A DNA stretch of 64,000 nucleotides from Candidatus Nealsonbacteria bacterium DGGOD1a (GTDB lineage Bacteria; Patescibacteriota; Minisyncoccia; Minisyncoccales; UBA5738), in assembly GCA_022530585.1 (NCBI GenBank), contig CP092821.1, positions 198,222 through 262,221 on the forward strand. Reading direction: 5' to 3'. Below are positions 615 to 55,086 of this stretch, piece by piece; positions within the stretch are counted from its first letter, which is position 1, and each line of letters opens with the position of its first letter. The position numbers were made by a program, and so were the translations under genes. The notes under the pieces were generated by a model that saw only the letters and a program-made list of their open reading frames with translations, ran no database searches and was not told where the DNA came from.

Positions 615-665
615 CGGATTCGCGGCAAAGAAACCGCAGATTCAGTTTAATTTTTGAGTTGGAAA

Positions 666-2426: not shown

Positions 2427-2499
2427 TTTCGATTTTTCTTTCCATTGTTTCGCCGAATGCGCTATACTTATATTAATTGGATGGCCGCAAATAAAAAAT

Positions 2500-2922
2500 A
2501 TGCCGATAAAAAATAACGAAAAAAATAACGAAGGAAAAAGAATTCTTGTCGTTGAAGACGATCCGTTTTTGTCCGATATTTACAATACCAAATTGAAACA
2601 AGGCGGATTCGATGTCGATTCGGCGATGACCGGAGAGGAGTGTTTGCAAAAACTGAATTCCAAGAATTACGATTTGATGCTGCTTGATATCGTATTGCCG
2701 CAACTGGACGGATGGGAAGTGATGGCGCGCGTCAGGGAAATGCGGCAGAAAAACCCGGATTCCGATCTTAATCGTTTGAAAATTATTATTTTATCCAACC
2801 TCGGGCAAAAAGAGGAGATTAAGAAAGGATTGGAGCTTGGAGCCGACGGTTTTATGATCAAGGCGCATTTCACTCCCAGCGAAATCGCGGAAGAAATAAA
2901 CAAAACATTAAATATAAAATGA
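2500..2922 (+). CDS. stand-alone response-regulator receiver (CheY/PilH-like)
   Basis: 140 aa. Motifs VVEDD, LMLLDIVLPQLDG (phospho-acceptor Asp) and IKAHF (conserved Lys). There is no output domain. Confidence 0.85.
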   Translation: MPIKNNEKNNEGKRILVVEDDPFLSDIYNTKLKQGGFDVDSAMTGEECLQKLNSKNYDLMLLDIVLPQLDGWEVMARVREMRQKNPDSDLNRLKIIILSNLGQKEEIKKGLELGADGFMIKAHFTPSEIAEEINKTLNIK

Positions 2923-3065
2923 AATTGAAGAATTGGTTCGGCGGACGGTTTTACCGAACCGATAATGTTAGATTCTCGGAGTTGAAATTTTGCCGAACGA
3001 AATTTTAACGATATATTTTTTCCCCGAATTTTGATTTTTGATATTTACATTTTAAATTCGCGATT

Positions 3066-4127: not shown

Positions 4128-4281
4128 AAAATTCGAAGCACGAATGTCGAATATCGAAACAAATTTAAAATTCGAATGTTCAAATGTCCGAAACGAAATT
4201 TAAAATTCGTTTTAAAATTTCGAAATTTGAAACTTCAGATTTGTTTCGATATTCGATATTCGATATTCGAAATCTGAAATT
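4128..4281. repeat. AT-rich palindromic intergenic module, 'TTCGAA/CGAATAT' dialect (P1)
   Basis: Fills the pilT-pilC spacer. The arms cgaatatcgaaacaaat and atttgtttcgatattcg are inverted copies. The left ~40 nt (aaaattcgaagcacgaa..tcgaata.tcgaaacaa) recur at 38880-38920. Confidence 0.6.
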
Positions 4282-5487: not shown

Positions 5488-5584
5488 AACAATTTCTATC
5501 TTGCAATCTACCGCGTAAATTTGATAAAATAAACGAACCGCGAACCGGTGCGGCCGCCAGAAGCGGCAACCGGCGCGGCCAATT

Positions 5585-5998
5585 ATGAAAACAAACAAAA
5601 ATCGCTTATCAGCCGATATCGATTGGGGAATGAATTCTGTTTTTATCGTGCCGATTTTGGTGGTTTTTTTTGGCGTCGTCATAACCGCGCAGATGGCGGC
5701 GATCAAGCTGGTGGGCGGATTTTTTTACTCCAGAGAAGTTGACACGCAAAATGTTTTAAAAAACAGCCGCAGTATTGAAATTCCGGCAATTTCCCGCTTG
5801 AGTCCGCTTTCCGAATTTTCAATGTCGGGATCGGACGGACGGATAGTTTCCGGCGCGGATATTCTTGAATTCTTGCCCGCGGATATTTTTGTTTTGCCGT
5901 TTGCCGCCGCCGCTTTGTTTTTGGCGCGGCGCGGGGAAACGGTTGCCGAATTTATTTATGAGAGCGATTGTATTCGGATTCGTCCGCCGATAGTTTGA
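5585..5998 (+). CDS. hypothetical membrane protein (weak call)
   Basis: 137-aa ORF with one TM helix ([22 protein letters not shown]) between pilC and the pilin. No recognisable motif. Confidence 0.3.
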
Positions 5999-6138
5999 TA
6001 AATCCCTTTTTGTTTTTTCGGAATTTATCTAAAACTAAAGCGAGATTGTTGAATAATTGTTTTTGGACAATTTTAAACTTGACGGTATCGGCAAATTGGC
6101 CAAGTCCAATAATTATCCGGCGATCCGGGAATAATCAT

Positions 6139-6654
6139 ATGTTGATAGCCAATAAAAAAAACGGTTTGCCAAGGCAAGGTTTCACCCTTATTGAATTGCT
6201 GGTGGTTATCGCCATTATCGGCATTTTGGCCGGTATGGTGCTGGTGTCGATGGGCGGCGCGCGAGCCAAAGCCCGGGACGCCAAAAGAATGTCGGATATG
6301 CGCCAGCTGGTTTCGGCGCAGGAGATGTATTACGGCGAGGCGGATATGTATCATCCCGCGGCAAGCGGCATGGCTACGGGAACGATTTCTTATTTGGGTA
6401 ATGTTTACATGAGGATTCCGGCGGATCCGGGCGGACACGCGACTCAAATCGCGTGCGGAACCGCCGACAGCAAAGGCTATTATTGCGCGATTGCCAATAC
6501 CGCCAGTCCTGCTACCCGCCAGCAGTTTTGCTATTACGCTCGGTTGGAAGGCGAATCGAAATATTACACCGCGTCCCACGGCGGCAATGTTAAAAGAACC
6601 GCCGGCGTGGGTATTGCCGTGCCCACATTGGCCAATTGCAATACGGCCAATTAG
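6139..6654 (+). CDS. type IV major pilin, paralog 1 (prepilin with class III signal)
   Basis: The internal ATG at 6139 gives the leader [14 protein letters not shown]|[21 protein letters not shown], i.e. a G|F cleavage/methylation site followed by a hydrophobic helix. The longer ORF from 5968 would bury this signal. Confidence 0.85.
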
Positions 6655-6722
6655 TCAGTATGGGTGAAACCTATTTGATAACGATAATGATAGTGATAGA
6701 ATAATAAAAGGTCGAACTATCC

Positions 6723-6749
6723 GGCAATAAATAGTAAATATTTATTGCC
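6723..6749 (+). terminator. hairpin downstream of pilin 1 (weak terminator candidate)
   Basis: ggcaataaata-gtaaa-tatttattgcc forms an 11-bp perfect stem. No clear T-run follows. Confidence 0.35.
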
Positions 6750-6790
6750 ATTGATTGAGAATGTCAGTTTAAAAAAAATTATAAAGAATT

Positions 6791-7261
6791 ATGACAAATC
6801 GCAAAGAGGGTTTCACCCTTATTGAATTGCTGGTGGTTATCGCCATTATCGGCATTTTGGCCGGCATGGTGTTGGTGTCGATGGGCGGCGCGCGGCAAAA
6901 AGCCCGGGACGCCAAAAGAATGTCGGATATGCGCCAATTGCTTTCGGCGCAGGAGATGTATTACGGCGAAAAGGACGCGTATTATCCGGTATTGACGGAC
7001 AATAGCGTGGCTACGGGAACGATTGCCAACGGCACTACGGTTTATATGACTGTTCCGGTGGATCCGGGATCTCCTGCCAGTGCTTGCACTGCCGGTACCA
7101 CTGCCAATGTTTACTGCGCGATGGCAAACACCGGCGACCTGCAGAAGTTTTGCTATTTCGCGCGTTTGGAGGGCGAGGCGAAATATTACACCGCGTCCCA
7201 AGGCGGCAATGTCAAGAAGACCACAAAACCGACTTTGGCCACTTGCAATACGGCGGACTAG
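6791..7261 (+). CDS. type IV major pilin, paralog 2
   Basis: Leader MTNRKEG|[26 protein letters not shown]. The N-terminal ~55 codons and the C-terminal FCYxARLEGExKYYTASxGGNVK block are near-identical to paralog 1. The centre is divergent. Confidence 0.85.
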   Translation: MTNRKEGFTLIELLVVIAIIGILAGMVLVSMGGARQKARDAKRMSDMRQLLSAQEMYYGEKDAYYPVLTDNSVATGTIANGTTVYMTVPVDPGSPASACTAGTTANVYCAMANTGDLQKFCYFARLEGEAKYYTASQGGNVKKTTKPTLATCNTAD

Positions 7262-7282
7262 CCAAGGAATCGAACACAGAGA

Positions 7283-7306
7283 ATCGGCGAGTTTCGCCGA
7301 TTTTTC
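7283..7306 (+). terminator. intrinsic terminator after pilin 2
   Basis: atcggcga-gtt-tcgccgat forms an 8-bp stem followed by ttttt. Confidence 0.7.
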
Positions 7307-7359
7307 GTTACGCGGCCGTTGTGATAAAATAAATTCGTCGAATGATTTTTCCAAGATGT

Positions 7360-7461
7360 CTTGAATTATGAAACGCTTTGCATTCGGGGTCTATCCCTTG
7401 CGTAATCGCAAGGGTTAGACCCCTCTAAAGCATTTGCATTTAATGATTTCGCAATTCAAAG
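7360..7461. mobile_element. 102-bp palindromic MITE-like element, copy 1
   Basis: Terminal inverted repeats cttgaattatgaaacgctttg / gatttcgcaattcaaag. The central hairpin is ggggtctatcccttgcg-taatc-gcaagggttagacccc. A near-identical copy lies at 57395-57496. Confidence 0.6.
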
Positions 7462-7464
7462 AAT

Positions 7465-7626
7465 ATGGATATTTTATTTTGGTATGTTTTTGTTTCGATA
7501 TTCGCCGTCGGTATGATTGTCGGCAGTTTTTTGAATTGCTTGATCTGGCGATTGCATAATAATGAAAGCGCGCGGGGAGGGTTGACTTTGCAATTACTGT
7601 TTGCGCAATTAAAATACAGACAGTAA
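7465..7626 (+). pseudogene. orphan 5' fragment of prepilin peptidase gene (pilD remnant, 53 codons)
   Basis: MDILFWYVFVSIFAVGMIVGSFLNCLIWR... 7465-7574 matches 8621-8730 and includes a 73-nt exact run. After the homology ends it reads into unrelated sequence, with a stop at 7624-7626. Confidence 0.75.
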
Positions 7627-7642
7627 CACTATTTGTATTTGA

Positions 7643-8420
7643 ATGATACGGATGGAAAATAAAAAAATTGCATCATACGCTTTTATTGACGCTTCCAATC
7701 TGTTCTATGGCGGGGAGAAAAGTTTGGGTTGGAAAATAGATTACGAAAATCTTTTTGAATATTTAACGGAAAAATATTCAGTAAGAAAAGTTTTTTATTT
7801 TGGCGGCGCGGAAATCCATAAATTCAATTTTGACTATTTAAAAAATGATACCGTGCCGATTGCCGAATTGAAAAAATATCTTAAAAATGAAATCAAAACC
7901 GGCGGCAGTAAGTTAAATGAAGCGGATATGATATTATTAAGCCGGCATTTGCAGAGAGTTAAGTTCTATTCCAAGCTTGAGTCTTTTGGATATGAATTGC
8001 GGCTTAAACCCGTAAAATTATATTATCACGATAGTAGTACGGTTAAAAAAGCGAATTGCGATGTTGATATGGCCTTTTATTGAGTGCAATACCTCGGGGC
8101 TTTGCCCCGGGGTGCACCAAGAGGATTCCAAAGGGGTGCCCCCTTTGGTCGTCGTGCGGGGTTCATACCCCGCTCGACGAAATACATTTGGAAAATATAT
8201 TTTTGATTTGATGAAGGAAATGAACAATTTTGATAAAGCGATCATTCTTTCCGGCGATGGCGATTTTTTACCGGTTTTGAAATATTTGAAAGCGTGCGGC
8301 AAGGGAATAACCATATTATCCCGCGGCCCGAGAACCGCGCGCGAAATTCGGCAATTTGCCGGTTCTGATTTCAGGGATTTTACCAGGCTGGAAAGAATAT
8401 TGAAGTTTGACGGGAAATAA
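7643..8420 (+). pseudogene. NYN/LabA-like (PIN-related) nuclease-domain gene interrupted by a 118-nt insertion
   Basis: The N-part ends ...KANCDVDMAFY* at 8083. The C-part resumes as IFDLMKEMNNFDKAIILSGDGDFLPVLKYLK in another frame. Deleting 8081-8198 joins the two in frame. The motifs FIDASNL, CDVD and SGDGDF fit the NYN fold. Confidence 0.7.
8081..8198 (+). mobile_element. three-hairpin repeat element, copy A (inserted inside the NYN gene)
   Basis: Three hairpins: cggggc-ttt-gccccg, ccaaagggg-tgc-cccctttgg and gcgggg-ttcata-ccccgc. Linker aagaggattcc. Flanked by tat/tat. Copies at 18578-18690 and 55153-55267 share the same architecture. Confidence 0.6.
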
Positions 8421-8424
8421 ACTA

Positions 8425-8512
8425 CCGCGCGTCGTCAGGGTATTCTTGCGGAAAAGTTTGTTTCCCCGCCATTCATCCCCGGGGCAAAGCCCCGAGGTAT
8501 TCTGGCGGGTAA
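8425..8512 (-). repeat. partial/diverged copy D of the three-hairpin element (inverted relative to copy A)
   Basis: 8474-8498 is the exact reverse complement of the 25 nt aatacctcggggctttgccccgggg at 8088-8112. An atgaatggcgggg segment (cf. ttgatggcgggg) follows. The middle hairpin is missing. Confidence 0.4.
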
Positions 8513-8620
8513 ATAACAAAAAGCGGACATGCGAAATATCCGCTTCACGTTTAGTAAGCATATACTATCATTCGACAAGACATTGTCAATAGCGAGCGTA
8601 GCAAGCATTGTATAAACATT

Positions 8621-9460
8621 ATGGATTTTATTTTTTGGTATGTTTTTGTTTCGATATTCGCCGTCGGTATGATTGTCGGCAGTTTTTTGAATTGCTTGAT
8701 CTGGCGATCCTATAATAACGAAAGCGCGCTGGCCGGCCGGTCGTATTGCCCGAATTGCCGCCATAAACTGGCGTGGTTTGATTTGGTTCCTTTGTTCAGT
8801 TTTTTATTTTTGCGCGCCAAATGCCGTTATTGCGAAAAACCGATATCGTGGCAATATCCTTTGGTTGAGTTGGCAACCGGAATTCTTTTCGTCGCCGCGG
8901 CGCGGGCGTTCGCCTCCGGGATTTTTAACGGTTATCTGCCGGTGATTTCCGCGCTTGAGCTGTTGGCGTATTGGGCGATTTTGTCTTCGCTGGTTGTGGT
9001 GTTTGTCGCGGATTTGCGCTGGTATTTTATTCCCGACGGCGCGATCGCCGCGGGGATTTTTGGCGCCGCGGTTTTAACGATCGCGCGATTTTTTGAAAGC
9101 GATTTTATTTTTCACCGATTCGATTGGAACATAATTTTCAATCCGCTGTTGTCGGGGCTGTTCGCCGCGCTGTTTTTTCTGGCGATATTTTTGTTTTCGC
9201 GCGGAAAGTGGATCGGCTTTGGCGATGTCAAATACGCGCTTTTGATGGGATTGGCGCTTGGTTTTCCCGAGACTTTGCTGGCGCTGTTCCTTGCGAATTT
9301 TTTTGGTGCTATAATAGGTTTAGGATTGATCGCGGTTCGGCGCAAGAAGATGTCGTCGGAGATTCCTTTCGGGCCGTTTCTGGTTGGCGGAACGCTGGTC
9401 GCGCTGTTCTTTTCCGGTTCGATACTGAATTGGTATTTGTCGATAGGGATGCATAATTAA
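8621..9460 (+). CDS. pilD: prepilin peptidase / N-methyltransferase (A24 family)
   Basis: 279 aa. N-terminal Zn-finger-like CPNCRHKL...CRYCEKPISWQYPLVELATG, multiple TM helices, and the catalytic-Asp contexts ADLRWYFIPD and IGFGDVKYA. Confidence 0.9.
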   Translation: MDFIFWYVFVSIFAVGMIVGSFLNCLIWRSYNNESALAGRSYCPNCRHKLAWFDLVPLFSFLFLRAKCRYCEKPISWQYPLVELATGILFVAAARAFASGIFNGYLPVISALELLAYWAILSSLVVVFVADLRWYFIPDGAIAAGIFGAAVLTIARFFESDFIFHRFDWNIIFNPLLSGLFAALFFLAIFLFSRGKWIGFGDVKYALLMGLALGFPETLLALFLANFFGAIIGLGLIAVRRKKMSSEIPFGPFLVGGTLVALFFSGSILNWYLSIGMHN

Positions 9461-9576
9461 AAATTTAAAAATCAAAATGAAAAACGACAAATTAAAATAT
9501 TAAAATGTCGAATTTCAATTTTGTCATTTTCCATTTTGATTTTTACATTTTGCATTAAGCTTCATAAATAGGCGCG
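9461..9576. repeat. AT-rich palindromic intergenic module, 'AAATCAAAATG/TGACAA' dialect (P2)
   Basis: aaaaatcaaaatgaaaaacgacaaa ... ttttgtcattttccattttgattttt are long imperfect inverted arms spanning the whole pilD-to-minor-pilin spacer. Confidence 0.6.
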
Positions 9577-10158
9577 ATGGAAATATTACACATAAAGCAA
9601 TTTGCCGGGGCAATTCGCTCAAAACGAGGGTTCACCTTAATTGAGCTGATTACGGTAACCGCGATCATTTTGGTTATCAGCGCCATCTCCATTCCCAATT
9701 ACCGCCAGGGCGGCCGCCAAACGGCGCTGGATATGCAGGCCAATCGGTTCGCGCAGGATTTGCGGCGGATTCAGGAATGGTCGCTGGCGGCGCATCAGGT
9801 GGGCGGCCAGGCAAAACGCGGCTACGGAATATCTTTATCCCAAGGAAACGGCCCGTACATAATTTATCTTGACGACGGCAATAATGGCGGGTCGATTCTT
9901 CCCGGCAACGGGAAATATGACGCTTCTTTCGATACCGTTCAGGAAACTATCGCTCTTGACGGCAAAATTGAAATCGCGGCGTGCGTACCGGCGTGCGCGG
10001 CGACTCCGGCCAGCGTCGAATATATGCCGTCCAATTCGGCGACATGGATAAACGGGATTGAAAGCCAGCCGACCCAGCAGATTAATTTTCGCGTAAAGAA
10101 TACTTCAATGATTCGTTCGGTGATTGCGAATAAAGCAGGATTGATCTATGTCCAATAA
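9577..10158 (+). CDS. minor pilin / pseudopilin with N-terminal methylation motif
   Basis: Leader ...SKRG|FTLIELITVTAIILVISAISIPNY, with no similarity to the major pilins beyond the helix. Confidence 0.75.
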   Translation: MEILHIKQFAGAIRSKRGFTLIELITVTAIILVISAISIPNYRQGGRQTALDMQANRFAQDLRRIQEWSLAAHQVGGQAKRGYGISLSQGNGPYIIYLDDGNNGGSILPGNGKYDASFDTVQETIALDGKIEIAACVPACAATPASVEYMPSNSATWINGIESQPTQQINFRVKNTSMIRSVIANKAGLIYVQ

Positions 10159-10708
10159 TTGTCCGAGAAAAACAAATAACCGATGTTTCGGGTTCACGCT
10201 TATCGAGGTGATGACGGCGCTGACCATAATTATGGTGGGCATTGTGGGTGTTTACGGGCTGGTCAATCAAACTCTTTCCGCGTCAAAAGCCGCGTCAATG
10301 CAATTAACCGCGGCTTATCTGGGAAAGGAGGGGGTCGAGATCGTCAGAAACATTCGCGACGGCAATTATTTAAAATCGCTTAATGGCGAGCCGGGTTATG
10401 ACCAAGATCGCGGTTGGATGAGCGGACTGGCATCTTCCGGGAGTCCGGACAATGTTAATTGCAGTACTGGTTGCGGCGCGGATTATTCGATGCAATTGCT
10501 CAATCGGGATTATGACGCCGTGCCGCTCAAATTTGACGGCAATTTCTATAATTATTCAACGGGCGGCGACACTCCCTATAAAAGAATTATCACCGTGAAT
10601 CATAGTGGCGGCGATTTTTTGGAAGTTATTGTCCGCGTTGACTGGATTGAACATGGCCGAAATCATTCGATGACGGTTCGGGAAAATCTTTACGATTGGT
10701 GGGATTAG
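10148..10708 (+). CDS. minor pilin (PilV/GspI-like) with N-terminal methylation motif
   Basis: Leader ...NRCFG|FTLIEVMTALTIIMVGIVGVYGL. It overlaps the previous gene by 11 nt, which suggests translational coupling. Confidence 0.75.
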   Translation: MSNNCPRKTNNRCFGFTLIEVMTALTIIMVGIVGVYGLVNQTLSASKAASMQLTAAYLGKEGVEIVRNIRDGNYLKSLNGEPGYDQDRGWMSGLASSGSPDNVNCSTGCGADYSMQLLNRDYDAVPLKFDGNFYNYSTGGDTPYKRIITVNHSGGDFLEVIVRVDWIEHGRNHSMTVRENLYDWWD

Positions 10709-10823: not shown

Positions 10824-13088
10824 ATGAATAAAAAAACATTGTTGAATTCTGTTTTGGCGATTTCTTTGGCGGCGTTGCTCTTTGGAACGAATGTCGTTTC
10901 GGTCAATGCTTCGGCCACGAAAGCCAATTTGGAAATTTGCGCTTCCGCCGGCGAATGTATTTCAGGCAATTGCAATAGTTTGATTTGCTGTCCTTCGGGC
11001 ACTTGCGGATGGGGCGATGGAGTTAATTTTGTCCGCGAATGCGTTGCCAGCGGCCAAATTCGAGAAAATTCCTGGGCGAGTTTGATTTGCCGTTCCGGGA
11101 TATGGAAAGTGCGGTTGAATGGCTGGGGTTGCAATAATTCGGCTTGGGGCGGTTGCGATGAGGGATGGTGCCAAACTTTCGGCGATGCCGGTTTTTGCCG
11201 AAGTTGCGCTTTTGACTCTGGCTTGGCTCAAGGTTGTGCCAACGGTGAAGCATGTCCTTCGGGAACTTTATGCAATAATACGGTTTGCTGCCCTTCGGGT
11301 ACTTGCGGTTATGGAGACGGCCTTGTTTTTGGTCGCCAATGCGTGGCTAGCGGCGAAATAAGAGAAAATCTTTGGGGCCGGCAGATATGCCGCAACGGGG
11401 TTTGGAAGACCTTGGTGGGCGGCTGGGGTTGTGATGTTTTTGGGGAGTGCGAATCCGGAAGTTGCCAGGAGATTGGCGGTTACCATTATTGCATATCTTC
11501 CTTGCCGTTTTCTTCTGCGTACACTTCAACCGCTTACAATACGGGAATGTATTGCCAGGGGACTTGCCGTACTTGCGCGTCAGAGGGCAATGTTTGCGGC
11601 AATATGAGCGATAATTGCGGCAGTACAATTAATTGCGGCACATGCACCGGTGGCCAGAGTTGTTACAATAACCGTTGCGTTTTTTGTTTGCCGGGAACTG
11701 TTTCCGGGTGCAAAGTATGTAAATCCGATGGTAGTGCTTGGCAGGATGACGATGCCAAATGTTTAACCAACCAAATCTGTTCTTTGGGGGTTTGTATGGC
11801 CCGTAGTAGTTCCGATAGTCTCTACATTGTTTCAATTGCCATTGCCAACGGCGGCGCCGCCGGATACATCGATATCGGCGATACCATCAAAATTACTTTC
11901 AGCAAAGCCATCGATCCGGCTTCAATCAACAGCGGCCTTTCATCGGGAAGTTATGTTTCCGGCGTCTCTTCTTCCCAGATCGGCGGCGTGAGCGTTTCTT
12001 CGACGGGCATAGTGAATATTAACGGCATCGCCCTTTTTGATACGGGAACGGTGGACGATTCCGGCACTTTCACTTCCAAACTGGCGCTTGATTCCGCGGG
12101 GAAAGTTTTGACCGTAACACTGACGAGCGGCAATGCCATTAGAGTCGTCAGCGAGAATTATAGCGGTACCGTTCAGTTCGGAAATACGGTGAAAGATACC
12201 AACGGCAACGCAATGGCAAGCGATGCGGCCATCGATGATCCGATCGGAGGTTCCGCCGGCACGCTTTCCATTTCTTCCATTGCCATTACCAACGGCGGCG
12301 ATAAAAATTACATTGATATTGGCGATACTGTCAGAATCGCTTTTAGCGAGGCCATCGACCCGGCTTCAATCAGCGGCGGCCTTAATGAAGGCGATTATGT
12401 TTCCGGCGTTTCTTCTTCCCAGACCGGCGGCGTGAGCGTCTCTTCGACAGGCATCGTGACCATCAAAAATATCGCTGTTTTCGACGCTGGTTCGGTGGAT
12501 GATTCCGGCACTTTCACTTCCAAGCTGGCTTTGAGTTCCACCGGCAAAATTTTAACCATTACGCTGACCGGCGGTGGCAATATCAGGATTGCCAATGAGA
12601 GTTTCGGCAGTGCCAGCCAGATTGGCGGTACGGTGGAAAATGTCGATGGCAACGCGATGGAAGAAAAAACTTCCATCGGCAAGCCCGCGGGCGGGTTTGG
12701 GGAAGAAGGCAGTATCGGTGCCAGCGGCGACCTTTCCGTGCTTTATGCCCAGATTGAAGCCTTGAAAGCTGAAATTACGGCTTTGCAAAAACAGTTGGCG
12801 GCGATGGGGACAACGGGAACCGGTTCTTATTCTTGCGCCGGAATCACCAAATACCTTTATTACGGGATAACCGATCCGGAAGTTTCTTGTTTGCAAAATT
12901 TTTTGAAATCGCAAGGTTACGCGGTGTTGGCAACCGGTACCTACGATTTAGCCACTAAAGCCGCCGTCAAGCAGTTTCAGGAAAAATATGCTCGCGAGAT
13001 ACTTGCTCCTTACGGATTAACCTCGGGTTCGGGCAATGTGGGCAATGATACCCGCGGCAAGATTAATCAGCTTATGGCGGTAAAATAA
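10824..13088 (+). CDS. secreted Cys-rich surface protein: 2x Cys-knot-like module, 2x Ig-like (SbsA-type) repeat, coiled coil, C-terminal peptidoglycan-binding domain
   Basis: Sec signal (..VSVNA|SA). The module CxxGxxCxSGxxCNNTVCCPSGxCGxGD...C(V/R)ASG(Q/E)IREN..W occurs twice. A 146-aa repeat (IAIxNGGxxxYIDIGDTxxIxFSxAIDPASI) occurs twice. Coiled coil LSVLYAQIEALKAEITALQKQL. PG_binding_1-like segment GITDPEVSCLQNFLKSQGY...AVKQFQEKY. Confidence 0.75.
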   Translation: MNKKTLLNSVLAISLAALLFGTNVVSVNASATKANLEICASAGECISGNCNSLICCPSGTCGWGDGVNFVRECVASGQIRENSWASLICRSGIWKVRLNGWGCNNSAWGGCDEGWCQTFGDAGFCRSCAFDSGLAQGCANGEACPSGTLCNNTVCCPSGTCGYGDGLVFGRQCVASGEIRENLWGRQICRNGVWKTLVGGWGCDVFGECESGSCQEIGGYHYCISSLPFSSAYTSTAYNTGMYCQGTCRTCASEGNVCGNMSDNCGSTINCGTCTGGQSCYNNRCVFCLPGTVSGCKVCKSDGSAWQDDDAKCLTNQICSLGVCMARSSSDSLYIVSIAIANGGAAGYIDIGDTIKITFSKAIDPASINSGLSSGSYVSGVSSSQIGGVSVSSTGIVNINGIALFDTGTVDDSGTFTSKLALDSAGKVLTVTLTSGNAIRVVSENYSGTVQFGNTVKDTNGNAMASDAAIDDPIGGSAGTLSISSIAITNGGDKNYIDIGDTVRIAFSEAIDPASISGGLNEGDYVSGVSSSQTGGVSVSSTGIVTIKNIAVFDAGSVDDSGTFTSKLALSSTGKILTITLTGGGNIRIANESFGSASQIGGTVENVDGNAMEEKTSIGKPAGGFGEEGSIGASGDLSVLYAQIEALKAEITALQKQLAAMGTTGTGSYSCAGITKYLYYGITDPEVSCLQNFLKSQGYAVLATGTYDLATKAAVKQFQEKYAREILAPYGLTSGSGNVGNDTRGKINQLMAVK
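11029..11620 (+). repeat. ~590-nt block nearly identical to 15871-16462 (dispersed duplicate inside two different genes)
   Basis: At an offset of 4842 nt I see only a handful of substitutions: gatgttt/gatcttt, caggagatt/caaaagatt, ttctgcg/ttccgcg. The flanks diverge on both sides. Confidence 0.85.
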
Positions 13089-13091: not shown

Positions 13092-15584
13092 ATGGCGCCA
13101 GTTCGAAAATTATTTGATTTTGAAAATTTCAATAAAAAAACAGCGGGGGCGGTTTTGGCCGTTGCCGCGGTTTTTTGTTTCGCGTTTTTCGCCGCCGCGC
13201 GGGCCGAAGAAGATTGCGTTCCCAATTTCGTCCATAGCCGCTATGAGTGCGGCGACGCGGAAAAAGACGGTTGTAAAGGAACTTTGAAGGATATTTGGTG
13301 CGATACGGCTTGCGGCTCCGGTTGTACGGTTCATTCGCAAACCGCGTGCCAAGGATGGCAAAAATGCGACGCGGGCAAAGGGTCTTGCGCTTGCGCCGGA
13401 TCGTGTTTGGCAAAAAAAGAATATCAAGCAAAAAACGACCGATATTACGATAAACCGTTTTGCGATCATGGCAAACCGCCGGATGCGTGTGGCAATAATG
13501 GCCCCGACGACCGCACTATGCCGCTGAAATTCGATTGGGAAAACAACGCTCTTTTTGGCGGCGCGGGCAATATTCAATCCTATACGATAGAAATTGACAA
13601 CGACAATTACCAGCTTCAGCAGGAAGGCGAATTCAAGAAAGTTTTGCCTTATGACCATTTTGTTTCGACGATCGACGGCGGAACCTGTTTTTTTAATTCT
13701 TCTTCGGAGATAACTTGGCGGGTTAAGCCGTGCTGCAAGGCCGATGGAACGGAATGCGGCAGTTATAAAGACTTCAAATTTTCCACGACCTCGGCACCGG
13801 AATTGATTGCTCCTTATGACGCGGATTGGGTATATGGCAAATGCACTTCATGGATATATAATCCCACGCCTCCGCCGCAGTTATGCCAAAATGTGCTGCA
13901 ATCCGAACCGGGCGATTGGGTTCTGCGGTGCCAGCCGTTTTGCGTTTCGAACAGTTATTCTTTCAAGGGGATGCAATTAAGGTGGTGTGCGGCCAAATTA
14001 CCGGCCGAATACCAGACATCGGATAAAGTGGCATATGCCAAATCGTACAAGCTGATGGTTTTATCCGATGAAAAAGAGAAAAATGCTCTGAAATGCCATC
14101 CGCTTTTGAGTTCAACCGGCAAATGCAAAGCTGAAGATGTTATTGTCGACCCGCAATTGCCGGATAATTCGGTTGTTAAGTATCCGGAGCAGAGCCGCCA
14201 GCATTTCGCGCTTTTCACGCGCGATCGGCTTTATGACTGGTCGGTGCAAACTTGTTTTGACGATATTGCCTATAAATGCGGCGGCGGCAGTCAATCATGG
14301 AAATTTACAACCAAGATCGAATTGATCGGAGTTCCGGGAGCGGTTTCGCCCAAAAACGATCCGAACGGAATTGAACCGGTGGGCTTGCCGCTGGCGATAA
14401 CATGGACTATTCCGGACGGCGCGAATTCATTCGTTTATCAGGCTTCTTTTTTACCGGGCAGCAAAAAAGTCGACTGGCCGACGGTTCCGAATGAAAAAAT
14501 GAATGCCAATGAAAAAAAATTATTCGATGCGGATAATTTAAAGCCCGACACGGAATACAAGTGGCGAGTTAAAGCTTGCGCTTATTTCAATTCTTCCGAT
14601 TGCGACAGCTGGTCCGAATGGTTTGTTTTCCGTACCACGGGCCGGCCGCCCAAGCCCGAAACGATGAAAGTCGAAGGCAATGTCCCGGCGATTTTTTCCT
14701 GGGAAGCGGTACCCGGCGCGAAATCCTACAATTTCAGCCTTTTCAAATCCAGCGGCGAAACCAAAACCGCGCTTTTAAACGATATTGAATTTTTGAAAAA
14801 CCCGAAATACACTCTTGGGTATCCCGACATTGGCCAGGCGCAAAGTTATTCGTGGAAAGTCCAGACCTGCGCTCATTCCGATGGCACGGTTTGCGGCGCG
14901 TGGAGCGGCGAAAAACCGTTCACCGCTTCCGAGCTGCAGGGGGCGGCCGATTTGAAGCCCGGGGCCGGTTCCACGGTCTGGGCCGATCAAGTATCGCAAA
15001 ATATATCCTGGGGAGAAGTTAAGGGCGCAGTTGCCTACCATTATGTTTTGGAATTTGTTTCATCGGCGGAAAAGCAAGAATGTGTTCAGGAAAAGATCGA
15101 CAAAATAATTTCGCGGACATCGGATGTCGCGGAATTAAAATGCCTGGGCGGTTACCGTTTGGCGGTGCGGCCTTGCGCCGATGCCGGATGCGAAAGCTCC
15201 GGTCCGGAAAGCGAAACAGATTTTATTTTGTCCCAGCATATTCCGGAAAACAAATCCGCGTTCGCGCTTTGCGGCGTCGGTTATGATGATCCGCAAACCG
15301 CTTGGAACGATCGGGAAGCTTGTCAGCCCAAGCATTTGCTGCTGCTGGCAAAAGTTTTTATTGATTTTCTGCTTTTTAAATTATCGGTGTTTCTTTTGCC
15401 GATTCTGGCATTGATCACGGGCTTGATTTTCTATTCGCCGCTGGGCGGTCAGGATATCATGGGAAAAATCAAAATGATGTGGAAAGCGATCGGCATCGGT
15501 TACGCGCTTATGATTTTTGCCTGGATTATCGTCGGAATTTTAATGCAAATCGCCGGTTTTTCCGGGAGTTGGTGGAGGTTGTAG
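13092..15584 (+). CDS. secreted multi-FN3-like Cys-containing protein with C-terminal two-helix VirB2/TrbC-pilin-like membrane domain
   Basis: Sec signal (..FAAARA|EE). Five repeats end in [YT]xW[RKS]V[KQ]xC...C..W..F.T (TWRVKPC, YDWSVQTC, YKWRVKAC, YSWKVQTC, YRLAVRPC). FN3-type starts such as FSWEAVPGAKSY. C-terminus LPILALITGLIFYSPLGGQDIMGKIKMMWKAIGIGYALMIFAWIIVGIL. It starts 4 nt after the previous gene. Confidence 0.7.
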   Translation: MAPVRKLFDFENFNKKTAGAVLAVAAVFCFAFFAAARAEEDCVPNFVHSRYECGDAEKDGCKGTLKDIWCDTACGSGCTVHSQTACQGWQKCDAGKGSCACAGSCLAKKEYQAKNDRYYDKPFCDHGKPPDACGNNGPDDRTMPLKFDWENNALFGGAGNIQSYTIEIDNDNYQLQQEGEFKKVLPYDHFVSTIDGGTCFFNSSSEITWRVKPCCKADGTECGSYKDFKFSTTSAPELIAPYDADWVYGKCTSWIYNPTPPPQLCQNVLQSEPGDWVLRCQPFCVSNSYSFKGMQLRWCAAKLPAEYQTSDKVAYAKSYKLMVLSDEKEKNALKCHPLLSSTGKCKAEDVIVDPQLPDNSVVKYPEQSRQHFALFTRDRLYDWSVQTCFDDIAYKCGGGSQSWKFTTKIELIGVPGAVSPKNDPNGIEPVGLPLAITWTIPDGANSFVYQASFLPGSKKVDWPTVPNEKMNANEKKLFDADNLKPDTEYKWRVKACAYFNSSDCDSWSEWFVFRTTGRPPKPETMKVEGNVPAIFSWEAVPGAKSYNFSLFKSSGETKTALLNDIEFLKNPKYTLGYPDIGQAQSYSWKVQTCAHSDGTVCGAWSGEKPFTASELQGAADLKPGAGSTVWADQVSQNISWGEVKGAVAYHYVLEFVSSAEKQECVQEKIDKIISRTSDVAELKCLGGYRLAVRPCADAGCESSGPESETDFILSQHIPENKSAFALCGVGYDDPQTAWNDREACQPKHLLLLAKVFIDFLLFKLSVFLLPILALITGLIFYSPLGGQDIMGKIKMMWKAIGIGYALMIFAWIIVGILMQIAGFSGSWWRL

Positions 15585-15653: not shown

Positions 15654-18509
15654 ATGATTAGACTTGGAAAAAATATAGGATTTGCCATTTTGATTTCCGT
15701 GCTTGCAATCGGCGGTTGTTGGCACTTTTTCAACTTTCAAAATGATTCCTTGGTTGAGGCTGACAGCTTGCAGGGTTGCGCCAGCGGTGAAGCCTGCCCT
15801 TCAGGTACGGCTTGCAACAATACGGTCTGTTGCCCGTCCGGTTATTGCGGTTGGGGCGATAATGTTTATTTTGTCCGCGAATGCGTTGCCAGCGGCCAAA
15901 TTCGAGAAAATTCCTGGGCGAGTTTGATTTGCCGTTCCGGGATATGGAAAGTGCGGTTGAATGGCTGGGGTTGCAATAATTCGGCTTGGGGCGGTTGCGA
16001 TGAGGGATGGTGCCAAACTTTCGGCGATGCCGGTTTTTGCCGAAGTTGCGCTTTTGACTCTGGCTTGGCTCAAGGTTGTGCCAACGGTGAAGCATGTCCT
16101 TCGGGAACTTTATGCAATAATACGGTTTGCTGCCCTTCGGGTACTTGCGGTTATGGAGACGGCCTTGTTTTTGGTCGCCAATGCGTGGCTAGCGGCGAAA
16201 TAAGAGAAAATCTTTGGGGCCGGCAGATATGCCGCAACGGGGTTTGGAAGACCTTGGTGGGCGGCTGGGGTTGTGATCTTTTTGGGGAGTGCGAATCCGG
16301 AAGTTGCCAAAAGATTGGCGGTTACCATTATTGCATATCTTCCTTGCCGTTTTCTTCCGCGTACACTTCAACCGCTTACAATACGGGAATGTATTGCCAG
16401 GGGACTTGCCGTACTTGCGCGTCAGAGGGCAATGTTTGCGGCAATATGAGCGATAATTGCGGCGGTACGATTTATTGCGGCGATTGTTCTTCCGGCCAAA
16501 CTTGCGCTTCCGGCCAATGCGTTTCTAGTTGTGTCAATGATTGTTCTTCCAGCGGCGCCAAGCAATGCGGCGGCAACGGTGTCCAAACCTGCGGCAATTA
16601 CGATGCCGACAGCTGTTTGGAATGGAGTGCGGCGGTTGCCTGTTCTTCGGGACAAATCTGTGCGTCCGGCCAATGCGTTTCTAGTTGTGTCAATGATTGT
16701 TCTTCCAGCGGCGCCAAGCAATGCGGCGGCAACGGTGTCCAAACCTGCGGCAATTACGATGCCGACAGCTGTTTGGAATGGAGCGCGGCGGTTGCCTGTT
16801 CTTCGGGACAAATCTGTGCGTCCGGCGTTTGCGTTGCCAGTAGCGACGATTGTACCGCCGAGTATTCCAAAAAATGTTATAACGGCAATGTTTATTGGTA
16901 TGATTCTTGCGGAGTTCGCGGCGATGTTTACCAGAATTGCGGTAATAGCGGGTCGACCTCAAATTATCAATGCGGCGGTAATTGGCTTCAGCAGGAAACC
17001 GTTGTTAGAGATTGCGCCGCCGGCGCGTGCACTCAAGATTCATCATGGAATAATGTTCAGGATTGCGCTTTGAGCGGCAAGATATGTAAAAATGGCGTTT
17101 GTATTGCCGCCTGTGTCAATGATTGTTCTTCTAGCGGCGCCAAGCAATGCGGCGGCAACGGTGTCCAAACCTGCGGCAATTACGATGCCGACAGCTGTTT
17201 GGAATGGAGCGCGGCGGTTGCCTGTTCTTCGGGACAAATCTGTGCGTCCGGCGTTTGCGGCGTTAAAGACGCGCTTGCGCCTGTAATTTCAGGTTTGGCG
17301 CCTTCGGGGAAAGCATACAATTCCAGCGTGGTTTTGGTTGCGACCACCAACGAGGCCGCGGATTGCCGTTATAGCTGGTATGATAGAAGTTTTGACCAGA
17401 TGACTTTACCGTTCAAAACTTCAAACAAGCTTTATCATTCGGCGCCGGTATCTTTGAGTTCTTACGGCAAGTACACTTATTATGTGCGTTGCAAAGACGC
17501 TTTCGGCAATGCCAATCAGATACCAAGCAAAATATCGTTTGATTATGTTTCGGCAACCGGTGCCGCCACTATTGCCGCGCCAAATATTCAAGCGTCTTCA
17601 ACTGTTTCATCCACCGCGGGTCTCGCGGATAAAACTCCGGCGGCGATTTCCGGTCTGGCGCCATCGGGCGCCATCACCAATGCCACGACCGTTATTTCTT
17701 GCGTTACCGGCGAAAAAGCGACTTGCAGGTACGATATTGCCGATACGGATTACGATTCGATGGAAAATACGATGGATACCGCCGCCGGCGTTCATCAGAG
17801 CAAAACAATAACATTGTCCAGTCCCGGAAATTACAATTACTATGTCCGTTGCAAAGACGCGGCGGGCAACAAGAACGCCGATTCGGTTAAAATCAATTTT
17901 GATTACGCGCCAGCTTCAAAAGTTCCGCCGGTAGTTTCCGAATTGCAACCTGCCAGCCCGGTTTATCAGAAAAGCGTAATGCTGACGGCGGTTACCGATA
18001 AGGCGGCTCAATGCCGCTGGTCAACCCGGGATCAGGATTTTGACGCGATGCCGGGACAATTTTCGGCAACCGATGGCCAAAACCAGCAAGCGATAGTGGA
18101 TTTAAACGATTACGGCCGATACGATTATTATGTGCGGTGCAAAGATGACGCGGGCGGCAAGGCCGCGGTTTCTTCGGTGATTAGTTTTGAATATAAAAAT
18201 CCGGAGCTGGAAGCCGCGGTTTTAAATGAAGTCGCCATTCCCGCTCAACAAGAACCTGTCGCTTGCGGAAAACCGGTTGCCGGCGCCAGCGACGGCGCTT
18301 GCAGCGCCGCGGTTGATTGTGTTTGCGATCCGGACTGCTCGGCCGGCGGCGGCGATGATCCTGATTGCGCCGCCGCGGCTGATAATTCAAGCGCCGCCGG
18401 CAATTTGTTGATTATCGCTATTCCGGTTGTCCTGATCGTTGTTGTCGTCGCGTTGATCGCGGCGGTGAAAAAAAGACGCGGCGGGGAAGACGGCGGCGAA
18501 GAAAACTAA
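15654..18509 (+). CDS. giant Cys-rich surface protein: shared N-terminal Cys modules, 52-aa Cys repeats, 3x Ig-like repeats, C-terminal TM anchor
   Basis: N-terminal signal/possible lipobox LAIGGC. Residues ~70-270 are near-identical to the 10824 protein. Four copies of C(V/x)NDCSSSGAKQCGGNGVQTCGNYDADSCLEWSAAVACSSGQICASG. Three repeats of SGLAPSG...CRY...Y.YYVRCKDxxGN. C-terminal LLIIAIPVVLIVVVVALIAAV-KKRRGGEDGGEEN. Confidence 0.75.
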   Translation: MIRLGKNIGFAILISVLAIGGCWHFFNFQNDSLVEADSLQGCASGEACPSGTACNNTVCCPSGYCGWGDNVYFVRECVASGQIRENSWASLICRSGIWKVRLNGWGCNNSAWGGCDEGWCQTFGDAGFCRSCAFDSGLAQGCANGEACPSGTLCNNTVCCPSGTCGYGDGLVFGRQCVASGEIRENLWGRQICRNGVWKTLVGGWGCDLFGECESGSCQKIGGYHYCISSLPFSSAYTSTAYNTGMYCQGTCRTCASEGNVCGNMSDNCGGTIYCGDCSSGQTCASGQCVSSCVNDCSSSGAKQCGGNGVQTCGNYDADSCLEWSAAVACSSGQICASGQCVSSCVNDCSSSGAKQCGGNGVQTCGNYDADSCLEWSAAVACSSGQICASGVCVASSDDCTAEYSKKCYNGNVYWYDSCGVRGDVYQNCGNSGSTSNYQCGGNWLQQETVVRDCAAGACTQDSSWNNVQDCALSGKICKNGVCIAACVNDCSSSGAKQCGGNGVQTCGNYDADSCLEWSAAVACSSGQICASGVCGVKDALAPVISGLAPSGKAYNSSVVLVATTNEAADCRYSWYDRSFDQMTLPFKTSNKLYHSAPVSLSSYGKYTYYVRCKDAFGNANQIPSKISFDYVSATGAATIAAPNIQASSTVSSTAGLADKTPAAISGLAPSGAITNATTVISCVTGEKATCRYDIADTDYDSMENTMDTAAGVHQSKTITLSSPGNYNYYVRCKDAAGNKNADSVKINFDYAPASKVPPVVSELQPASPVYQKSVMLTAVTDKAAQCRWSTRDQDFDAMPGQFSATDGQNQQAIVDLNDYGRYDYYVRCKDDAGGKAAVSSVISFEYKNPELEAAVLNEVAIPAQQEPVACGKPVAGASDGACSAAVDCVCDPDCSAGGGDDPDCAAAADNSSAAGNLLIIAIPVVLIVVVVALIAAVKKRRGGEDGGEEN
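16512..16823 (+). repeat. tandem 156-nt (52-codon) coding repeat, two near-identical units; third unit at 17112-17258
   Basis: ggccaatgcgtttctagttgtgtcaatgattgttcttccagcggcgccaagcaatgcggc... restarts at 16668. A related module lies in the 53119 gene. Confidence 0.85.
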
Positions 18510-39543: not shown

Positions 39544-39670
39544 ATTAAAATCAAAATGTAAAAATCAAAATGAAAAATGACAATGCAAAATTAAAAATTA
39601 TTAAATTTTAAAATTTGCCCATTTCACATTTTAAATTGTAATTTTGATTTTTGATTTTTCAATTTACAAT
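39544..39670. repeat. AT-rich palindromic intergenic module, P2 dialect
   Basis: aaaatcaaaatgtaaaaatcaaaatgaaaaatgacaatgcaaaattaaaaatta ... cacattttaaattgtaattttgatttttgatttt, inside the rpsF-ssb-rpsR operon. Confidence 0.6.
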
Positions 39671-53118: not shown

Positions 53119-55086
53119 ATGATTTTATTTATGCGCTCGCTGTTTTTGCTATCGTTGGTTTTTTTTGGGTTTTCGGCGCTGAATGCCGATGCCGCCAGCG
53201 GTTATTTTATCAAGGTAAACACCCACACCCATACGGCATGGGATAATACTAATGGTTACGGGTCCGATGGGCGAAACACTTTGGCGGAAATGGTTGATGC
53301 TTACAAATCAAAGGGATATAATTTGCTGGTGATCACCGATCATAATTCCTATGATGGAACAAAAACAAGCAGTTTGACTCAAGGTTATTTTGTAAATCGG
53401 GTCAATCCTTTTACGCCTTGCGATTCTTACAGCGATCCGGCGAACAAGTTTTTGTGCATCAGCGGCGAAGAGCTGACTCCCGGCATTGGAGTTTTCGGCG
53501 ATCATGCTCATCATGCCTTATTGGTGGGAGGAAAAAAACCATGGACAAATTTCGATGATAACGCGGATAATATCAAGAAAGCTTTCAGTTCGACGATATC
53601 TCAAGGAGGTTTTGCGGTTATTGCCCATCCAAGCTCAAAAAATCCGCTTTATGATCACAAAGGATTCAAGTTGGCGGACAATGAAACATATTGGACGCTT
53701 CCCGAATTAAAGAGTTTTGATTATACCGCGATGGAAATTAGCGCCACTACATCTGTCGCGTGGTGGGACGAGGTTCTGAAGTCCAAGCTTGACAGAAAAG
53801 TTTTTGGAATTCTTGGCGACGACGCGCACAGCGCGGCGGCGGCGGGGAAAAAATGGATACAGGCGTATGTGGCGGAATTGTCAAAAGAAGCGTTTCTAAA
53901 CGCGGTCAATCAGGGATACTTTTATTCTTCTACCGGGCCAAGTATGAATAGCGACGCGTTTTCATTTAAATGCGACAATGGCACAACTTACAATATGGGC
54001 CAAACCATTGGAACCATTGAATGCGGTAAAGGAAAATTCAAAGCCGGCGTGGTTGCCAGTGCCTCAAACGCTTTCGTTAAAAATATCAAAATCATTAAAA
54101 ACGGAGCGGTGATTTATAATAAAACTGATTGCCCAAAAGCTCAACAGTGTTCGTTTGAGTTTCCTCAAACAATAAAGGATGCCGCTTATTACCGTATGGA
54201 AGCCACGGATTCGGCGGGTAAATCATTATGGAGCAATCCAATCTGGTCGGTGGTTGAGTCCGCCCGTGTTGCCGTGTGCGCCAATGATTGCGCTTCCGGT
54301 ACCAAGCAATGCAGCGGCAACGGCGTCCAGACCTGCGGCAATTACGATACCGACAGCTGTCTGGAATGGTCTTTGCCAACCCCTTGCTCCTCCGGCCAGA
54401 TTTGTTCCTCGGGTTCTTGTTCCGCCGCCAGTTGTACCGGAGAATGTTCCGAATCCGGTACCAAGCAATGCAGCGGCAACGGCGTCCAGACCTGCGGCAA
54501 TTACGATACCGACAGCTGTCTGGAATGGAGCGCGGCGGTTAATTGCGCTTCCGGCCAGACCTGCTCCCAGGGCGTTTGCGTTGCCGCGTGCGCCAATGAT
54601 TGCGCTTCCGGTACCAAGCAATGCAGCGGCAACGGCGTCCAGACCTGCGGCAATTACGATACCGACAGCTGTCTGGAATGGTCTTTGCCAACCCCTTGCT
54701 CCTCCGGCCAGATTTGTTCCTCGGGTTCTTGTTCCGCCGCCAGTTGTACCGGAGAATGTTCCGAATCCGGCGCCAAGCAATGCAGCGGCAACGGCGTCCA
54801 GACCTGCGGCAATTACGATACCGACAGCTGTCTGGAATGGTCTTTGCCAACCCCTTGCTCCTCCGGCCAGATTTGTTCCTCGGGTTCTTGTTCCGCCGCC
54901 AGTTGTACCGGAGAATGTTCCGAATCCGGCGCCAATAGCAGCGATTATGATATCGATAGCGCTGATCAGGTTTGTCCCAACGGCGTTTGTTCAAATTTGG
55001 ATTATATACAATCGCAGATCAATGTGATACAAAAAGCAATCAGCCGGCTCTTTGACCTGTTGGCAGCATTGAGAGAGGGCCGTTAA
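53119..55086 (+). CDS. secreted PHP-domain phosphoesterase fused to 4.3 copies of the 52-aa Cys-rich module
   Basis: Signal ..SALNADA|AS. PHP motifs KVNTHTHTAWD, LLVITDHN, AIAHP and GDDAH. Then CANDCASGTKQCSGNGVQTCGNYDTDSCLEWS... repeats, and a C-terminal amphipathic helix. Confidence 0.7.
   Translation: MILFMRSLFLLSLVFFGFSALNADAASGYFIKVNTHTHTAWDNTNGYGSDGRNTLAEMVDAYKSKGYNLLVITDHNSYDGTKTSSLTQGYFVNRVNPFTPCDSYSDPANKFLCISGEELTPGIGVFGDHAHHALLVGGKKPWTNFDDNADNIKKAFSSTISQGGFAVIAHPSSKNPLYDHKGFKLADNETYWTLPELKSFDYTAMEISATTSVAWWDEVLKSKLDRKVFGILGDDAHSAAAAGKKWIQAYVAELSKEAFLNAVNQGYFYSSTGPSMNSDAFSFKCDNGTTYNMGQTIGTIECGKGKFKAGVVASASNAFVKNIKIIKNGAVIYNKTDCPKAQQCSFEFPQTIKDAAYYRMEATDSAGKSLWSNPIWSVVESARVAVCANDCASGTKQCSGNGVQTCGNYDTDSCLEWSLPTPCSSGQICSSGSCSAASCTGECSESGTKQCSGNGVQTCGNYDTDSCLEWSAAVNCASGQTCSQGVCVAACANDCASGTKQCSGNGVQTCGNYDTDSCLEWSLPTPCSSGQICSSGSCSAASCTGECSESGAKQCSGNGVQTCGNYDTDSCLEWSLPTPCSSGQICSSGSCSAASCTGECSESGANSSDYDIDSADQVCPNGVCSNLDYIQSQINVIQKAISRLFDLLAALREGR
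54277..54935 (+). repeat. tandem coding repeats (~156-nt unit, 312-nt higher-order period)
   Basis: tgcgccaatgattgcgcttccggtaccaagcaatgcagcggcaacggcgtccagacctgcggcaattacgataccgacagctgtctggaatgg recurs at 54277 and 54589. tgtaccggagaatgttccgaatccgg units alternate with it. Confidence 0.85.

Follow-up and report, generated by a model that had tools for sequence, protein, structure and literature searches.

An eight-cysteine repeat domain without a Pfam-A or NCBIfam model, arrayed in two proteins of Candidatus Nealsonbacteria bacterium DGGOD1a

A 64,000-nucleotide (nt) stretch of the genome of Candidatus Nealsonbacteria bacterium DGGOD1a (contig CP092821.1, positions 198,222 to 262,221 of the forward strand; hereafter, the window) contains two genes, named here gene A and gene B, that each carry an array of a 52-amino-acid (aa) cysteine-rich unit. 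This unit belongs to a large family of repeat domains for which neither Pfam-A nor NCBIfam has a model. The domain is a genuine one that occurs widely and can be folded with confidence, and the family, which is undescribed, is of a familiar kind, i.e., a small Cys-rich extracellular repeat. The reading that we favor, and hold to be probable, is that of a widespread eight-cysteine extracellular domain that forms stalk or binding arrays on proteins A and B and is remodeled between strains. The two proteins are exact sequence matches to UMX48128.1 (A) and UMX48154.1 (B) of DGGOD1a (GTDB genus UBA5738), and the contig that carries their genes is 1,159,797 bp long. This organism is a Patescibacteria epibiont that has been seen attached to Methanothrix in a methanogenic benzene-degrading culture, and its genome, CP092821, is closed, having been assembled from Illumina and PacBio reads and validated by read mapping (bioRxiv 10.1101/2022.04.20.488981). 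Cys-rich proteins or adhesins are not mentioned in that genome paper, a literature search for the 52-aa repeat in the Candidate Phyla Radiation (CPR), DPANN archaea, or Myxococcota found no description, and no entry for either protein was found in the text of the OR-consortium proteomics supplements.

Units were located by combining the open reading frame (ORF) listing, Tandem Repeats Finder (TRF), and a unit hidden Markov model (HMM) run on the six-frame translation of the window. A first-pass annotation, made from the sequence alone, had placed a shared Cys module in both genes, and the HMM bears this out far beyond chance, with each unit scoring ~100 bits (E ~1e-31) and no further copies outside genes A and B in the six-frame translation. 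Every 52-aa period contains eight Cys, at positions 1, 5, 9, 17, 25, 33, 42, and 48, rather than the six (three disulfides) counted originally, so up to four disulfides are expected; likewise, the gap that follows LEWS is of four residues, not eight. All seven units in the window carry all eight Cys, and the stretch GNYD[AT]DSCLEW is invariant among them. Gene A has three canonical units (A1 to A3), a truncated pre-unit upstream of A1, and a 90-aa divergent variant, instead of the roughly four units first reported. TRF describes its array with a period of 156 nt (2.2 copies, 96%), and its units are 92 to 97% identical to one another at the DNA level. The 156-nt tandem pair at 16512-16823, once taken as perfect, is near-perfect, since 16512-16667 and 16668-16823 are identical at 155 of 156 positions, with the single mismatch at 16628 and a longest exact run of 119 nt. 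As for gene B, the 312-nt higher-order repeat was confirmed by TRF (1.8 copies, 98%), whereas its extent changed from 4.3 units at 54277-54935 to four units (B1 to B4) plus a 13-aa stub at 54265-54927. Two subtypes alternate in this array (B1 and B3 are 98% identical; B1 and B2, 75% over the full unit), B4 is a recombinant of the 5′ part of B2 and the 3′ part of B1, and a 73-nt core is 100% identical across B1 to B3. The claim that units are nearly identical within each gene thus holds for gene A, for B1/B3, and for the gene B core but fails for B1 versus B2 as full units. Similarly, the gene-specific signatures (GAKQCGGNG/DADS in A; GTKQCSGNG/DTDS in B) apply overall, except to B4, which has GAKQC. 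Between the two genes, unit DNA is 90 to 93% identical in the core and about 70 to 75% over the whole unit.

The search of public proteins with a unit HMM that the first-pass annotation had proposed was run as an exhaustive hmmsearch of a seven-unit profile against 1.84 billion cluster representatives. It retrieved 1,637 representatives at E ≤1e-3, 705 at ≤1e-10, and 156 at ≤1e-30, with up to 17 matched stretches per protein. Word-index searches with one 55-aa unit or a 78-unit alignment gave no matches, the index being too coarse for short Cys-rich queries. In the best 150 members, units follow one another head to tail with a period of ~52 aa; the median count per protein is 7, and most units lie in the N-terminal half. 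The consensus derived from 638 full units reads C-x3-C-x-[DN]-[ED]-C-x3-G-x3-C-x-G-x-G-V-x-T-C-G-[DN]-[YF]-D-x-D-x-C-L-E-W-[GS]-x4-C-x2-G-x2-C-x2-G-x-(C), and each of the eight Cys is at least 99.7% conserved across 954 family domains. The window units have the Cys spacing of the family, C-x3-C-x7(8)-C-x7-C-x7-C-x8-C-x5-C-x3(4)-C, as well as its best-conserved non-Cys feature, the loop G-[DN]-[YF]-D-x-D-x-C-L-E-W, and the terminal G-x-C hairpin (family frequencies: D31, 0.92; W36, 0.89; G51, 0.97). Genes A and B also conform to the family in bearing head-to-tail arrays in proteins with a signal or lipoprotein N terminus; among full-length members, 117 of 141 have a hydrophobic N terminus and 64 a lipobox-like motif. 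First units of arrays are devoid of the first Cys and last units keep the trailing one, which indicates that the structural domain runs from Cys5 to Cys1 of the next period (~49 aa, eight Cys). Partner domains comprise LTD/ExeM-like, PKD, DUF11, beta-helix/NosD, M23 peptidase, dockerin, SLH, LDLa, PPC, and thioredoxin/ResA-like domains. Thiol-disulfide oxidoreductase domains of the AhpC/Redoxin/ResA-like type are fused to module arrays in 3 of 75 members, hinting at a redox link.

The module matches no named domain of Pfam-A or NCBIfam, in which no model covers the unit in the window proteins, in 75 family members, or in 10 repeat-rich members (E ≤1), and a sequence search of the PDB returned no entry matching the unit. 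Two candidates were discarded. DUF7107 scored 23.3 bits against a cutoff of 24.6, only at the end of one array, and MXAN_6577-like matches in family members lay outside the arrays or at array ends.

Species genomes of GTDB were scanned with a 12-sequence alignment and the CGNYDxD motif as seed, which gave 141 confirmed loci in Woese-, Pace-, and Nanoarchaeota, many Patescibacteria lineages, Myxococcales, Bradymonadales, Microvenator, and a few other metagenome-assembled genomes (MAGs), with source names in agreement. In this biased sample, unit identity between CPR and DPANN averaged 0.52 (maximum, 0.81), compared with 0.51 within CPR and 0.43 between either group and Myxococcota. The CPR-DPANN similarity, an identity comparison rather than a phylogeny, is suggestive of interdomain exchange. 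A MAG labeled uncultured Methanosarcinales (contig L075, 7-5592) encodes a surface protein of 1,861 aa that abounds in N-x-S/T sequons and has a single copy of the module; either the domain occurs in relatives of the host lineage or this contig was misbinned from a DPANN or CPR epibiont.

Prediction of the fold by AlphaFold2 on 256 aa of protein A as a single sequence gave a predicted local distance difference test score (pLDDT) of 37.5. When supplied with 91 aligned sequences phased from Cys5 to Cys1′, the program modeled the 53-aa domain at window positions 17106-17264 with a pLDDT of 95.8 and a predicted template modeling score (pTM) of 0.76, and the model consists of two beta-hairpins and a short bridge. 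Foldseek searches with this model returned a best PDB match at E=3.3 (ADAMTS4; probability, 0.06) and a best BFVD match at E=6.2. Co-loss of Cys gave no signal for disulfide partners, as only 12 of the 954 domains lack any of the Cys and never two together. Disulfides are nonetheless the bonding that we infer from eight invariant Cys in secreted proteins, the fused thioredoxin-like domains, and the MdbA-like oxidoreductase and VKOR families, which are enriched in CPR (bioRxiv 10.1101/335083). The eight Cys would form four disulfides, making each domain a small rigid bead of two beta-hairpins, and the string of beads would act as a stalk or spacer on extracellular proteins. Such an array would hold the immunoglobulin (Ig)-like domains of protein A and the PHP enzyme of protein B away from the cell, towards a host surface or substrate. 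The conserved acidic loop D-x-D...E-W might provide a Ca2+-stabilized binding surface or bind a ligand. A role at the host interface is plausible, given that gene A ends a type IV pilus gene cluster and that the organisms carrying the domain have contact-dependent lifestyles.

Arrays of the family are typically old, as indicated by a mean within-array identity of 0.48 and by the occurrence of a unit pair at ≥0.9 in just 3 of 100 arrays, one of them being protein A. The arrays of DGGOD1a are thus unusually homogeneous. Populations were compared by neighbor-gene look-ups around genes A and B, the DGGOD1a genome having been recovered from many samples. A sister strain represented by two independent contigs (L010 and L014) has flanks nearly identical to the window but only ~60% identity across 16464-16704. 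Its gene A has the same total length and encodes a first unit that is divergent (CGNECSYGAKQCNGNGYQTCGNYDGDSCTEWSGITACASGQTC) and a unit 2 whose 5′ end differs. At the 5′ edge of this tract, the paralogous block in the neighboring gene 10824 is matched at 25 of 27 nt by the sister allele and at 18 of 27 by the window allele. The sister allele being the closer to the paralogue, the window allele is probably derived and overwritten by neighboring-unit sequence. Gene conversion across 16464-16704 would have brought A1 and the 5′ part of A2 into line with the remaining units. In gene B, the comparison of B2 with B3 yielded a synonymous divergence (dS) of 0.07 in the core versus ~1.07 in the flanks, the signature of short-tract homogenization. 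The divergent A1 of the sister allele and the DNA-identical cores next to flanks saturated at synonymous sites support the concerted evolution within arrays that had been proposed at first. The possibility that the sister strain is the population lacking gene B (contigs L103 and L105) was rejected on the basis of its flanks, ~99.5% identical in the former and 88 to 98% in the latter. Unequal recombination and short-tract gene conversion between near-identical cores would remodel both the length and the sequence of the arrays.

Variability in copy number, also predicted by the first-pass annotation, was found in gene B but not in gene A. The gene A array is unchanged in JGI 3300028923, JGI 3300028916, the long-read-style ERZ25039527 contig_115924, and the closed genome, and its copy number looks stable, with three units in these four independent assemblies and in the sister strain. 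Gene B has four units in the closed genome and the JGI contigs, five in ERZ25039527 contig_115924 (L104, 6506-8555), three in P0248, which has other substitutions as well, and one in a 454-era contig; long reads underlie both counts of the four-versus-five difference. The five-unit gene B has an in-frame stop (Q to stop in CPKAQQCSF), either a sequencing error or a pseudogenized allele being possible.

Two alternatives concern the origin of the arrays themselves. It is very improbable that assembly produced the repeat structure, or even just the unit counts, as an artefact. Both arrays interrupt short-read contigs in several samples, a gap of 263 N lies in the gene B array of GCA_029216075.1, and unit orders differ between assemblies; however, the window comes from a closed, read-mapped hybrid genome, the gene A array is identical in all four assemblies named above, and homologous arrays occur in more than 1,600 protein clusters. 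Thus, of the artefact concern raised at first pass, the arrays proved real, and it retains force for the one- and three-unit forms of gene B. The second alternative, which was the original claim, is recent shuffling, in which an array was copied from A to B or the reverse within the genome and each array was then homogenized separately. We regard it as quite unlikely. It would account for the 90 to 93% identity of the 73-nt core between genes and for a core dS of 0.35 to 0.45, below the saturated synonymous sites of the flanks, and recent intragenomic copying does happen here, as shown by a 637-nt block of gene A that is 98% identical to a neighbor. Yet A and B units share 73 to 76% of their residues, no more than either shares with units of other Patescibacteria and Woesearchaeota (73 to 79%), and, with codons compared by HMM column, the nt identity of foreign cores is as high as 84%, so that much of the A-B core similarity is accounted for by codon usage and constraint; the saturation of the A-B flanks also speaks against a recent copy. 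Moreover, homologues of protein B already carry the module. The orthologue P0152, whose PHP domain is 70% identical, consists of PHP, linker, one module, and helix, and the homologue P0159 of PHP, a 90-aa long variant, one module, and helix. A single module before the same C-terminal helix argues that the gene B array expanded in place. This array probably grew from an ancestral single module, and a recent A-to-B transfer is unsupported.

Several points weigh against the stalk or binding arrays that we favor. The stalk or binding role comes from architecture and analogy, the four-disulfide pairing is a prediction, and the one- and three-unit forms of gene B may be collapses, given that short-read contigs break inside the arrays. 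The list of taxa is biased to the subfamily of the window by the CGNYDxD seed of the GTDB scan. In addition, the habitat is strictly anoxic and methanogenic, which makes metal ligation by Cys an alternative, and a profile search of the PDB found a weak match to CCCH zinc fingers (E=1.2e-3), with the C-x8-C-x5-C spacing in common. These last two observations, together with the eight invariant Cys, are what a metal-binding domain would draw upon, e.g., two Cys4 Zn sites or another metal center instead of a disulfide knot, with a strictly anaerobic organism as a suitable setting. We judge this unlikely, for the family is overwhelmingly secreted or lipoprotein, includes aerobic Myxococcota, and sits beside classic extracellular domains, while thioredoxin/ResA-like domains are fused to some arrays and CPR encode MdbA/VKOR-type oxidative folding factors. 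The CCCH alignment itself spans 22 residues only and has no His ligand. Fingers of this tristetraprolin type share with the unit the C-x8-C-x5-C spacing after an aromatic/acidic stretch, but they are intracellular and RNA-binding with C-x3-H as the fourth ligand, whereas the unit has Cys at x4, four further invariant Cys, and a secreted context; we therefore treated the match as a chance or pattern resemblance. A different alternative, which we consider possible, is that the units are primarily ligand-binding adhesin modules for the envelope of a host or prey (e.g., the Methanothrix sheath), with remodeling altering avidity or specificity. The concentration of the family in contact-living organisms (CPR and DPANN episymbionts, predatory Myxococcota and Bradymonadales), the position of gene A within a type IV pilus and surface-protein cluster, the conservation of the acidic/aromatic loop above all other non-Cys features, and the strain variability of the gene B locus are consistent with it. 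The best-conserved part is, however, identical between units and very different proteins, which a structural role fits too, the partner domains are highly diverse and include enzymes, and the taxon distribution stems from a motif-seeded scan. Broader still, and more doubtful, is the idea of a horizontally shared "contact toolkit" domain of CPR, DPANN, and predatory Myxococcota/Bradymonadales, with a fold absent among solved structures, that spans or binds the envelope of a host or prey cell (here, the Methanothrix sheath) and whose reach or avidity is tuned, at strain level, by conversion and by gain or loss of units. If true, it would be analogous to the length-variable adhesin stalks of pathogens.

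Coordinates of the features in the window are collected in Table 1. Protein A is a modular cell-surface protein with 82 Cys and a hydrophobic signal or lipobox-like segment at aa 7 to 26 according to hydropathy. Its N-terminal Cys-rich block matches the copy within ORF 10824-13088 at 625 of 637 nt (98.1%). The latter ORF encodes a surface protein with Big_5 and PG_binding_1 domains, and its block served as the outgroup that set the polarity of the conversion tract. This block constitutes a second, far more recent case of sequence sharing among adjoining surface-protein genes, and gene A is clearly mosaic given its presence in both; the 52-aa domain, too, is promiscuous. The 90-aa variant (CxxEYSKKCYNGNVYWYDSCG...CKNGVC) recurs in P0159, a 47% identical PHP homologue from another organism; it looks related to the 52-aa unit, with a long insert, and may represent a separate family. 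Gene A is the last of a cluster with genes for PilB, PilT, PilC, a prepilin peptidase, two pilins, and two other large surface proteins, and it is followed by the FtsW/RodA and rpoB genes. The complete type IV pilus set (PilB, PilT, PilC, prepilin peptidase, and two N-methyl pilins) lies at 654-10708, immediately 5′ of the genes for the three large surface proteins. Between the two that share the 637-nt block, an 830-aa ORF (13092-15584) has a Cys-rich N terminus, weak fn3-like matches, and a hydrophobic C-terminal region.

Protein B has a signal peptide and is devoid of transmembrane segments by hydropathy; it is a predicted secreted metallohydrolase of the PHP type, with hydrolase activity likewise predicted. 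It scored 104 bits with NF038032 (CehA/McbA; curated cutoff, 80), spanning positions 3 to 313 of the 315 in the model, and an H-T-H-T-H motif is visible at aa 35 to 39. The slot between a 132-aa ORF and LemA (~52776-55275) that houses gene B is strain variable. In a related population (L103; L105, 6353-7615; flanks 88 to 98% identical), an unrelated 420-aa Cys-rich secreted protein replaces gene B, and a DUF7387/HicA pair is added after LemA. A HicAB toxin-antitoxin pair (51753-52212) lies just upstream of the slot in all versions. Elsewhere in the window, two intergenic tandem arrays 22.7 kb apart (39547-39596, 3.8 copies; 62224-62259, 2.8 copies) have nearly the same 13-nt unit, AAAATCAAAATGA/T.

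Table 1. Positions of genes A and B, their units, and associated features in the window
Feature	Position	Strand	Description and support
Paralogous copy of the gene A Cys-rich block	11003..11639	+	Within ORF 10824-13088
Gene A	15654..18509	+	951 aa; ORF listing; GenBank UMX48128.1 "hypothetical protein"
N-terminal Cys-rich block of gene A	15845..16481	+	Two ~90-aa modules unlike the 52-aa unit
Putative intragenic gene-conversion tract	16464..16704	+	Sister-strain comparison, paralogue outgroup
Unit A1	16518..16673	+	aa 289-340; unit HMM, 103 bits
Unit A2	16674..16829	+	aa 341-392; unit HMM
Divergent long variant or spacer module, 90 aa	16830..17099	+	aa 393-482; CTAEYSKKCYNGNVYWYDSCG...CKNGVC
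Unit A3 and closing Cys535	17100..17258	+	aa 483-534; unit HMM; used for the structure model
Three diverged Ig-like repeats, ~100 aa each	17271..18233	+	Bounds approximate; Pfam Y_Y_Y 2.6e-6, Big_13 1.9e-5 (weak)
C-terminal transmembrane anchor	18384..18482	+	aa 911-943, then KKRR (stop-transfer) and acidic tail; hydropathy
Gene B	53119..55086	+	655 aa from first ATG; UMX48154.1 "CehA/McbA family metallohydrolase" is 651 aa from 53131
PHP-type metallohydrolase domain	53209..54246	+	aa 31-376; NF038032 E=9.9e-30
Unit B1	54265..54417	+	ANDC 5′ type/LPTP 3′ type; unit HMM
Unit B2	54418..54576	+	TGEC/AAVN type; unit HMM
Unit B3	54577..54729	+	ANDC/LPTP type, 98% identical to B1; unit HMM
Unit B4	54730..54888	+	TGEC 5′ with LPTP 3′, recombinant type; unit HMM
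Partial unit, 13 aa	54889..54927	+	CSAASCTGECSES; unit HMM
C-terminal tail, predicted amphipathic helix	54928..55083	+	Conserved in PHP orthologues P0152 and P0159

A large share of microbial diversity consists of episymbiotic CPR bacteria and DPANN archaea, and to our knowledge, little is understood of how they hold and exploit their hosts apart from type IV pili. The family comprises at least 1,637 protein clusters, has been missed by current Pfam-A and NCBIfam models, and is common to bacteria and archaea with contact-dependent lifestyles. Annotators gain a model to build, and experimentalists gain two candidates (UMX48128.1 and UMX48154.1) in an organism with a known Methanothrix host and a closed genome. 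The locus also offers a clean natural example of apparent intragenic gene conversion and of repeat-number change between strains of one CPR species. Should the domain be a passive disulfide spacer, the outcome would be a useful annotation and ordinary biology.

Among known systems, the likeness of gene B to the CehA/McbA PHP metallohydrolases (NF038032), with which its NCBI name agrees, is limited to residues 31 to 376, and the model of that family includes neither the C-terminal Cys-module array nor the terminal helix. A close bacterial parallel in kind is TIGR04201 (Myxo_Cys_RPT), the repeat of Myxococcus xanthus TraA, which, like the unit, is Cys-rich, extracellular, and tandemly arranged, and occurs in surface proteins of bacteria that depend on cell contact. 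The Cys repeats of TraA were proposed to be oxidized to disulfides in a rigid stalk that presents a recognition domain (PMC3325183). Both repeats co-occur in some Myxococcota proteins, yet TIGR04201 is a 22-position repeat with three invariant Cys, unlike the eight-Cys unit of 52 aa. Identity between the two was rejected, as TIGR04201 matches in family members scored 14 to 17 bits, below the 25-bit cutoff, and fell outside the arrays (residues 771 to 788 in P0001, whose array ends at 712), and genes A and B gave no TIGR04201 match at E ≤1. Eukaryote-type repeats, i.e., EGF-like or laminin-type EGF, LDL-receptor class A, and thrombospondin type 3, are ~40 to 60 aa long with six to eight Cys and build beta-hairpin-rich tandem extracellular rods, and the acidic D-x-D type loops of LDLa and TSP3 bind Ca2+. 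No Pfam match to EGF, Laminin_EGF, Ldl_recept_a, TSP_3, or Cu-binding_MopE was found over the unit (for the first four, none at E ≤1), and one family member contains LDLa as a distinct domain. The unit differs from the EGF, LDLa, and TSP3 repeats in its Cys spacing, 3-7-7-7-8-5-4, and its C-terminal hairpin, C-x2-G-x2-C-x2-G-x-C, is one that we take to be EGF-like in appearance.

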